A stretch of DNA of 64,000 nucleotides from Escherichia coli 042 (GCF_000027125.1 NC_017626.1), one strand, 5' to 3'. Shown: positions 46,966 to 47,416, counted from the stretch's first letter. Notes: generated by a model not told the origin, from the letters alone. Made by a program: numbers and translations.

Positions 46966-47416
46966 TGTCGGATGCGGCGTGAACGCCTTATCCGACCTAC
47001 GGTTCTACCCCTGCGCAGGCCTGATAAGACGCGCCAGCGTCGCATCAGGCAACGACTGTCGGATGCGGCGTGAACGCCTTATCCGACCTACGGTTCTACC
47101 CCTGCGTAGGCCTGATAAGACGCGCCAGCGTCGCATCAGGCAACGACTGTCGGATGCGGCATATACGCCTTATCCGACCTACGGTTCTACCCCTGCGCAG
47201 GCCTGATAAGACGCGCCAGCGTCGCATCAGGCAACGACTGTCGGATGCGGCATATACGCCTTATCCGACCTACGGTTCTACCCCTGCGTAGGCCTGATAA
47301 GACGCGCCAGCGTCGCATCAGGCAACGACTGTCGGATGCGGCGTAAACGCCTTATCCGACCTACGGTTCTACTCCTGCGCAGGCCTGATAAGACGTGCCA
47401 TCGTCGCATCAGGCAA
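46966..47416. repeat. BIME-type array: five tandem 91-bp units, each containing two inverted REP palindromes
   Basis: Unit starts at 46966, 47057, 47148, 47239, 47330 (period 91); unit variants alternate (gcgcagg/gcgtagg; gtgaacg, atatacg, gtaaacg). Confidence 0.92.

Follow-up and report, generated by a model that had tools for sequence, protein, structure and literature searches.

A five-unit BIME-2 array between dedD and cvpA in Escherichia coli 042 and its copy-number variation across the species

BIME-2 elements are defined by the combination of a y and a z2 REP, a short linker and multiple tandem copies (the Bachellier and Gilson classes, restated in Ton-Hoang 2012, PMC3333891). BIME-1 elements are inverted REP pairs in intergenic regions too, but they are present in single copy, contain z1 and carry an IHF-binding L linker. 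The number of tandem BIMEs varies between strains, and the protein TnpA-REP has strand transfer activity and both cleaves and rejoins BIMEs in vitro (Ton-Hoang 2012, PMC3333891). In these elements, gyrase cuts mainly the loops of y REPs and the stem mismatches, independently of transcription (Sutormin 2018, PMC6379681). According to the literature, BIME-2 sites lie mostly at the borders of supercoiling domains. The strong gyrase BIME-2 sites at sucB-sucC, tldD-yhdP and araD-araA, which are reportedly those named by Espeli and Boccard in 1997, are multi-unit, intergenic y/z2 arrays like the one described here. They contain up to 35 cleavage sites in K-12 with ciprofloxacin, compared to 0-2 at the one-unit element between cvpA and dedD (PMC6379681).

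Another well-described relative is REP325, a six-unit BIME-2 between yjdM and yjdN and the source of naRNA4 (Rfam RF02564). It consists of tandem y/z2 hairpin pairs between co-directional genes and is transcribed from the upstream gene. REP325 stabilises the upstream mRNA, acts as a partly Rho-dependent attenuator and gives rise to a ladder of hairpin-terminated RNAs (preprint 10.64898/2026.03.23.713779). The closest described system is the one-unit element between cvpA and dedD in K-12, which has been listed as a BIME-2 (Sutormin 2018 Table DS3, PMC6379681), while the K-12 RefSeq table for this locus contains coding sequences only and no REP feature. The y/z2 make-up of BIME-2, its variable copy number, its cleavage by gyrase and the action of hairpins in 3′UTRs are therefore matters of published record.

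Here we describe the corresponding locus of E. coli 042 in a stretch of 64,000 nucleotides (NC_017626.1), referred to as the window. The locus very probably consists of a BIME-2 with five y/z2 pairs in the 3′UTR of folC-dedD, located between the dedD stop codon and a predicted terminator that precedes the PurR-controlled cvpA-purF promoter (Table 1). It is a known kind of element at a locus already catalogued in K-12, and the five copies are the unusual part. The K-12 and the window elements share the locus, the flanks, the y-linker-z2 unit and the strand, and the last unit of the window has the GTAA loop and the AAGACC end of the single K-12 unit. They differ in that K-12 has one unit within an intergenic region of 258 bp and the window strain five within 622 bp; K-12 hence lacks a complete head-to-head y/z2 module and does not match naRNA4.

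Table 1. Positions of the array, its components and its neighbours, counted from the first nucleotide of the window.
Feature	Position	Strand	Basis or remark
BIME-2 array, five 91-bp units head-to-tail	46966-47420		TRF and in-register unit dissection
Unit U1	46966-47056		In-register unit
Unit U2	47057-47147		In-register unit
Unit U3	47148-47238		In-register unit
Unit U4	47239-47329		In-register unit
Unit U5	47330-47420		In-register unit
y-type REP of U1	46967-47000	+	y consensus match; plus strand is the inverted (iREP) orientation, ending CTAC
y-type REP of U2	47058-47091	+	
y-type REP of U3	47149-47182	+	ATAT loop
y-type REP of U4	47240-47273	+	ATAT loop
y-type REP of U5	47331-47364	+	
z2-type REP of U1	47015-47050	-	z2 consensus match
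z2-type REP of U2	47106-47141	-	
z2-type REP of U3	47197-47232	-	
z2-type REP of U4	47288-47323	-	
z2-type REP of U5	47379-47414	-	
naRNA4-like module	47018-47088	-	y hairpin, 7-nt head-to-head linker, z2 hairpin; spans two units
Further naRNA4-like module	47109-47179	-	Rfam RF02564
Further naRNA4-like module	47200-47270	-	Rfam RF02564
Further naRNA4-like module	47291-47361	-	Rfam RF02564
Short flank copy CATCGTGCAA of unit end CATCAGGCAA	46952-46961		Direct repeat bracketing the array; junction in zero-unit alleles
dedD coding sequence	47424-48086	-	ORF list; RefSeq annotation of strain GN25, nearly identical at this locus
cvpA coding sequence	46313-46801	-	ORF list and RefSeq; first gene of the downstream cvpA-purF-ubiX unit
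Terminator-like hairpin and tail TTTTTATTGATG	46892-46931	-	Terminator scan
Candidate cvpA-purF promoter region	46845-46873	-	PurR-box-like ACGCAAACGTTTTC at 46873-46860; -10-like TAGAAT at 46850-46845

An earlier note, made from the sequence alone, had described the array as five tandem 91-bp units. TRF agreed with this description and returned a repeat at 46966-47416 with a period of 91, 5.0 copies, 96% matches, no indels and a score of 825. An alignment of the five units revealed ten variable columns in all. Column 51 reads C, T, C, T and C from U1 to U5, which reproduces the alternation of gcgCagg and gcgTagg given in that note, and columns 14, 16 and 17 distinguish the GTGA loops of U1 and U2 from the ATAT loops of U3 and U4 and the GTAA loop of U5, matching the gtgaacg and atatacg variants recorded before. 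U1 to U4 differ from one another at 1-4 positions. U5 had rightly been singled out as more degenerate: it carries private changes at columns 44, 67 and 72, differs from U1-U4 at 7-9 positions and merges into the flank at columns 88-90.

Each unit contains one y and one z2 REP, and the inverted REP pairs proposed in the earlier note are thus more exactly those of a BIME-2. The z2 consensus matches five times on the minus strand, without mismatch in U2 and U4, with one mismatch in U1 and U3 and with three in U5. Matches of the y consensus on the plus strand have 2-3 mismatches, two of which represent a compensating change of a stem pair from C-G to T-A, and the y REPs of U3 and U4 exceed the limit of three mismatches solely through their ATAT loop. 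In dinucleotide shuffles of the window, 0 matches to y or z2 are expected. The strings used for matching are what we take to be the y and z2 REP consensus, and they are independently corroborated by the Rfam y-linker-z2 model, which aligns end to end with the modules of the array.

All y REPs are located on the plus strand and all z2 REPs on the minus strand, in strict alternation, with a head-to-head linker of 7 nt and a tail-to-tail spacer of ~12-16 nt. The tetranucleotide GTAG/CTAC is intact in seven of the ten REPs, i.e. in the five y REPs and in the z2 REPs of U2 and U4; the z2 REPs of U1, U3 and U5 have GCAG in its place, which corresponds to column 51. Every folded hairpin contains an internal stem mismatch and is in this sense an imperfect palindrome, as in BIME-2. 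The copies are multiple, in tandem and extragenic, because the array lies wholly between the stop codon of dedD and the start codon of cvpA. At the sequence level, the array therefore agrees with BIME-2 in every feature tested. A BIME-1 was considered as well and rejected: neither strand contains the IHF consensus WATCAANNNNTTR, no long L linker is present, and in contrast to BIME-1 the array combines z2 REPs and short linkers with tandem units.

The genes accD, folC and dedD, followed by the array, cvpA and purF, are all encoded on the minus strand. The stop codon TAA of dedD occupies 47426-47424, and the first paired base of the adjacent z2 REP is located 9 nt beyond it. On the other side of the array in the direction of dedD, a terminator-like hairpin at 46931-46902 is the sole such site in the region, with a stem of 12 pairs and a loop of 6 nt, and is followed by TTTTTATT (RNA fold of -17.5 kcal/mol, z of -6.3). 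The placement of the array between dedD and the cvpA-purF promoter region, as claimed in the earlier note, is correct, with the PurR-box-like ACGCAAACGTTTTC upstream of cvpA. The terminator-like hairpin that separates this promoter from the array had been missed. The PurR box and the promoter are candidates by the position of their motifs, and we take their identity from published knowledge of the purF operon.

Since all genes are on the minus strand and the terminator-like hairpin lies past the array, the array would represent dedD 3′UTR and not promoter DNA. It is best read as the 3′UTR of folC-dedD, set apart from the cvpA-purF promoter by the predicted terminator, and the positions of the genes and of this terminator point to its transcription in the dedD sense. 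As in REP325, transcription would thus come from the upstream gene, here predicted from position; different from REP325, a PurR-regulated promoter of its own serves the downstream gene behind a predicted hairpin terminator, which suggests that dedD and cvpA do not form one operon. The separate hairpin downstream also suggests that the array is unnecessary for termination. A scan for plus-strand promoters able to transcribe the array found none, and the only promoter-like match was located on the minus strand, inside dedD, and at chance level.

Overlapping, repeated and arginine-rich ORFs of 43-88 amino acids extend over 47005-47409 on the minus strand and over 46903-47476 on the plus strand. 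The series with MRRWRVLSGLRRGRTVGRIRR, for instance, occurs four times on the minus strand. We consider all these ORFs, which could be mis-called as genes, to be by-products of the repeat, and rejected those of 43-73 amino acids inside the array as genes.

In 5,415 of the 5,425 matching complete E. coli genomes, both flanks of the array are found next to each other. From a collection of 5,426 complete genomes, two systematic samples with together 119 chromosomes were analysed and 24 alleles were dissected; the collection is clone-biased, with ST131 contributing alleles of three units and O157:H7 alleles of four. The strain-to-strain variation in copy number expected in the earlier note was indeed found, and alleles of 0, 1, 2, 3, 4, 5, 6 and 7 units exist. 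A single unit is present in 76 of the 119 sampled alleles (64%), four units in 16 and three in 14. The remaining alleles have no unit (2), two (1), five (2), six (1) or seven units (1), contain truncated units (5) or are interrupted by IS621 (1). Six units are found in O55:H7 RM12579 and seven in O170:H18 CFIAFB20120266. Practically all E. coli consequently have this element at the locus, in 0 to 7 units.

Alleles with five units occur in about 52 of the 5,426 genomes (~1%) and are of two unrelated kinds. The window-type array, which is characterised by CGAC linkers and ATAT loops, is present in 48 genomes, including one in which 13 bp are deleted. The other type has CGGC linkers and is represented by four records among the matches listed, three of which were dissected. 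The five-unit allele is thus a rare, lineage-specific expansion.

In the zero-unit alleles of RIVM_C037884 and CUVET16-394, the whole BIME is absent and the positions corresponding to 46952-46961 of the window are joined to 47417-47420. The allele of RIVM_C037884 reads GCGGCATCGGGCAA directly followed by GACCGTATTAA, and the junction of CATCGGGCAA with GACC falls within the imperfect direct repeat of 10 bp by which the array is bracketed in other strains. These alleles represent either a site that never acquired a BIME or one from which the array was lost by a clean deletion. In its flanks, RIVM_C037884 is one of the strains most similar to the window, with 7 differences in 470 positions of the dedD flank. 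As zero-unit alleles are found in clinical and animal isolates, the element is dispensable.

Further alleles deviate from the simple series of units. Strain 135 and six other records (98.6% identity) contain the window-type array with both ATAT units beside a different dedD haplotype, which has 16 differences in 470 positions of dedD versus 0-1 in the main group; column 72 of U5 differs in these records as well. These differences suggest a transfer of the window-type array between lineages through homologous recombination, with the breakpoint located in the array or close to it. A recurrent truncated unit of 68 bp is present in AF14, strain 98203, H224 and H225, either alone or after one full unit. 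In this unit, TCTGTACCAGA stands in place of three parts, namely the 3′ half of the y REP, the spacer and the z2 REP's 5′ foot, and the replacement generates a new composite palindrome. In B25FEP (NZ_CM177971.1, 3201-4570), a 1,279-bp IS621 of the IS110 family is inserted into the one-unit BIME, precisely where the GTAG tetranucleotide of the z2 REP adjoins its GCCTGAT foot, a site of the type of position ~47016/47017 in the window. IS621 is known to target REPs, and the insertion site in B25FEP fits this preference. In ETEC4069 and strain 98203, dedD is 651 nt long compared to 663 nt, owing to a 12-bp in-frame difference in a proline-rich repeat region, and dedD itself is therefore length-polymorphic.

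Near-identical 91-bp units are difficult to assemble from short reads, and the length of five units could in principle be an assembly artefact in which the repeat was collapsed or expanded. The chance of this is negligible, because the array was recovered in 48 complete genomes from differing laboratories, hosts and countries, with the ATAT marker occurring exactly twice in each; about 47 of the 48 share an identical span of 1401 bp, and four diagnostic variant combinations fix the order of U1-U4 unambiguously. With 48 independent assemblies in agreement, a misassembly can in practice be ruled out. How the five units arose is a different matter. The earlier note proposed that U1-U2 were duplicated as a 182-bp block to yield U3-U4, which then diverged by point mutations, so that the array would be a two-unit higher-order repeat. 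Of this proposal, the C, T, C, T alternation at column 51 is real and speaks for a block, as does the count of events, since two duplications would suffice. Block duplication at this locus is also real in O55:H7 RM12579, which has the order a-b-a-b-c-d compared to a-b-c-d in O157:H7 and contains an exact two-unit duplication with lag-2 differences of 0 and 0 versus lag-1 differences of 2 and 2. A reciprocal kind of event is seen in strain 107, where one of three units is an a/b recombinant. The proposed route of divergence, however, is not established. In the window array, units two apart are not more alike than adjacent ones: the lag-1 differences are 1, 4 and 1 and the lag-2 differences 3 and 3, with U1-U2 and U3-U4 being closer to each other than units two apart. 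In addition, TRF reports no array with a period of 182, and the same three-base loop change (G14A, G16A, A17T) would be required in both U3 and U4. A block duplication followed by point mutations is thus possible but doubtful.

The sites in the loop and at column 51 are present in all four combinations (GTGA/C, GTGA/T, ATAT/C and ATAT/T), and in the corresponding marker string G c G t A c A t, no register yields an exact XX repeat at a lag of 2 or 4 markers. A single tandem duplication can therefore not yield the array without recurrent change or gene conversion. The ATAT loop represents three substitutions that are identical in U3 and U4, and in the 5,426 genomes it occurs in this array only and always in two adjacent copies. 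This indicates that the loop had a single origin and reached a second unit through a duplication of 91 bp or through conversion between units, not through point divergence. Among the 5,426 E. coli genomes, neither a donor REP with an ATAT loop elsewhere nor intermediate alleles with one or three ATAT units were found. Two histories remain. The array may have originated from a 182-bp duplication and a loop change, followed by conversion into the neighbouring unit, which requires fewer duplications, or from three 91-bp duplications combined with a recurrent C/T change at column 51, which requires fewer substitutions (5 versus 7). Column 51 varies independently in other lineages and is C in SCU-313, T in K-12 and part of ACAGG in ST131. 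In general, the number of units would shift by 91 bp or multiples thereof, and misaligned pairing of near-identical units during replication slippage or unequal sister exchange is the likely cause. Gene conversion between units probably accompanies these changes, and the REP-associated transposase TnpA-REP (RayT) is possibly involved.

When folded as minus-strand RNA, the array region has a predicted energy of -282.9 kcal/mol (z = -10.3), and its single hairpins range from -17 to -20.6 kcal/mol. The y hairpin reaches -18.8 kcal/mol and its ATAT variant, which lacks the pair that closes the inner y stem, -17.0 kcal/mol; for the z2 hairpin, the values are -20.6 kcal/mol and, in U5, -17.1 kcal/mol. 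The Rfam model RF02564 (naRNA4) matches the minus strand four times with 77.2-83 bits, above the gathering score of 59.5, and the plus strand with 52-56 bits, which is below this threshold. Besides naRNA4 and one miRNA match at chance level, no other Rfam family was detected in the array region. The number of naRNA4 modules equals the number of units minus one, with none in K-12 and in zero-unit alleles, four in the window, five in O55:H7 and six in O170:H18. Because the Rfam model is itself a BIME-2 module that any multi-unit BIME-2 will match, these hits add little.

The array could accordingly be viewed as a cluster of genes for naRNA4-like, nucleoid-associated RNAs that bind HU, bridge REP cruciforms and condense the chromosome. 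The four RF02564 matches above the gathering score lie on the strand that is predicted to be transcribed, and condensation of the nucleoid by naRNA4 from REP325 has been reported (Qian 2015, PMC4550694). Yet the relation between modules and units is what a y-linker-z2 model would yield from any such array, the head-to-head linker is 6 nt shorter than in the Rfam model and in REP325, and K-12 has only one unit and no full module at this locus. A later study observed neither an effect of REP325/naRNA4 on nucleoid volume nor contacts between REPs (preprint 10.64898/2026.03.23.713779); its authors include the original senior author of the naRNA4 work. The role in the nucleoid is disputed. We consider such a gene cluster very unlikely. 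It is considerably more conceivable, although still not what we favour, that the array is selectively neutral, i.e. a non-autonomous REP/REPIN that gains and loses units through slippage or RayT and whose copy number is of no consequence for dedD, cvpA-purF or topology. Viable isolates contain 0-7 units, truncated units and even an IS621 insertion, most genomes have one unit only, and the effects of REPs are reported to be variable and dependent on context, without a uniform increase in mRNA half-life (preprint 10.64898/2026.03.23.713779). On the other hand, almost all of the 5,425 genomes have an element at this locus, gyrase cleavage has been mapped to the unit of K-12, the hairpins are highly stable and start 9 nt from a stop codon, and REP325 in plasmid constructs changed the abundance of the upstream mRNA more than 160-fold (preprint 10.64898/2026.03.23.713779).

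Effects of the array on dedD mRNA stability and on supercoiling are plausible by analogy with these systems and from the mapping of gyrase in K-12. In K-12, the cvpA-dedD element contains 2 gyrase cleavage sites with rifampicin and ciprofloxacin, 1 with microcin B17 and 0 with Cfx or Oxo (PMC6379681), which are small counts in two of four drug conditions only. By analogy, the y REPs may serve at the DNA level as sites of gyrase binding and cleavage that do not depend on transcription, and five units might provide a stronger local gyrase site or a barrier to supercoils that separates the dedD unit from the cvpA unit. Different from the strong gyrase sites, the ATAT variant alters the y loop, the preferred region of gyrase cleavage. 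At the RNA level, the ten hairpins of a dedD-sense transcript could block 3′-5′ exonucleases and so protect the folC-dedD mRNA, and they may partly attenuate read-through before the terminator is reached, as in the six-unit REP325.

A further possibility concerns translation termination. A REP that starts ≤15 nt after a stop codon reportedly makes ribosomes stall as they terminate, with cleavage of the mRNA and tmRNA tagging of the protein encoded upstream (Liang, Rudd and Deutscher 2015, as cited in PMC12306157). With 9 nt between the dedD TAA and the z2 REP, the array lies within this published distance, and ribosomes might therefore stall at the end of dedD. The series of 0-7 units, in which most alleles follow lineage, could then act as a heritable dial that sets the survival of the folC-dedD mRNA, the level of DedD via stalling and the insulation of cvpA-purF. 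We regard this as an improbable proposal; if true, expansions of the five-unit type would be selected and not drifting, and cvpA-purF would be insulated from upstream transcription and supercoiling.

Irrespective of selection, the locus offers a natural series of 0-7 units in an identical context, flanked by a gene for cell division and an operon for purine biosynthesis, and this series could be used for quantifying the influence of REP number on read-through, on the recruitment of gyrase and on the stability of mRNA. Variants of the unit, i.e. the ATAT loop and GTAG/GCAG, are lineage markers. The locus is length-polymorphic, and short-read assemblies may get its length wrong.

Two additional elements were observed elsewhere in the window. 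A second REP pair, a single-copy BIME at 60191-60270, is located just past the stop codon of an ORF of 688 amino acids (58106-60172, plus strand). Its y REP is identical to those of U1-U2 and is separated by an 8-nt spacer from a z-type REP with a different loop, GCGATAAGC. The Rfam nuoG RNA (RF01748) matches 16057-16099 on the minus strand with 50.3 bits, compared to a threshold of 33, which places the nuo operon within the window.
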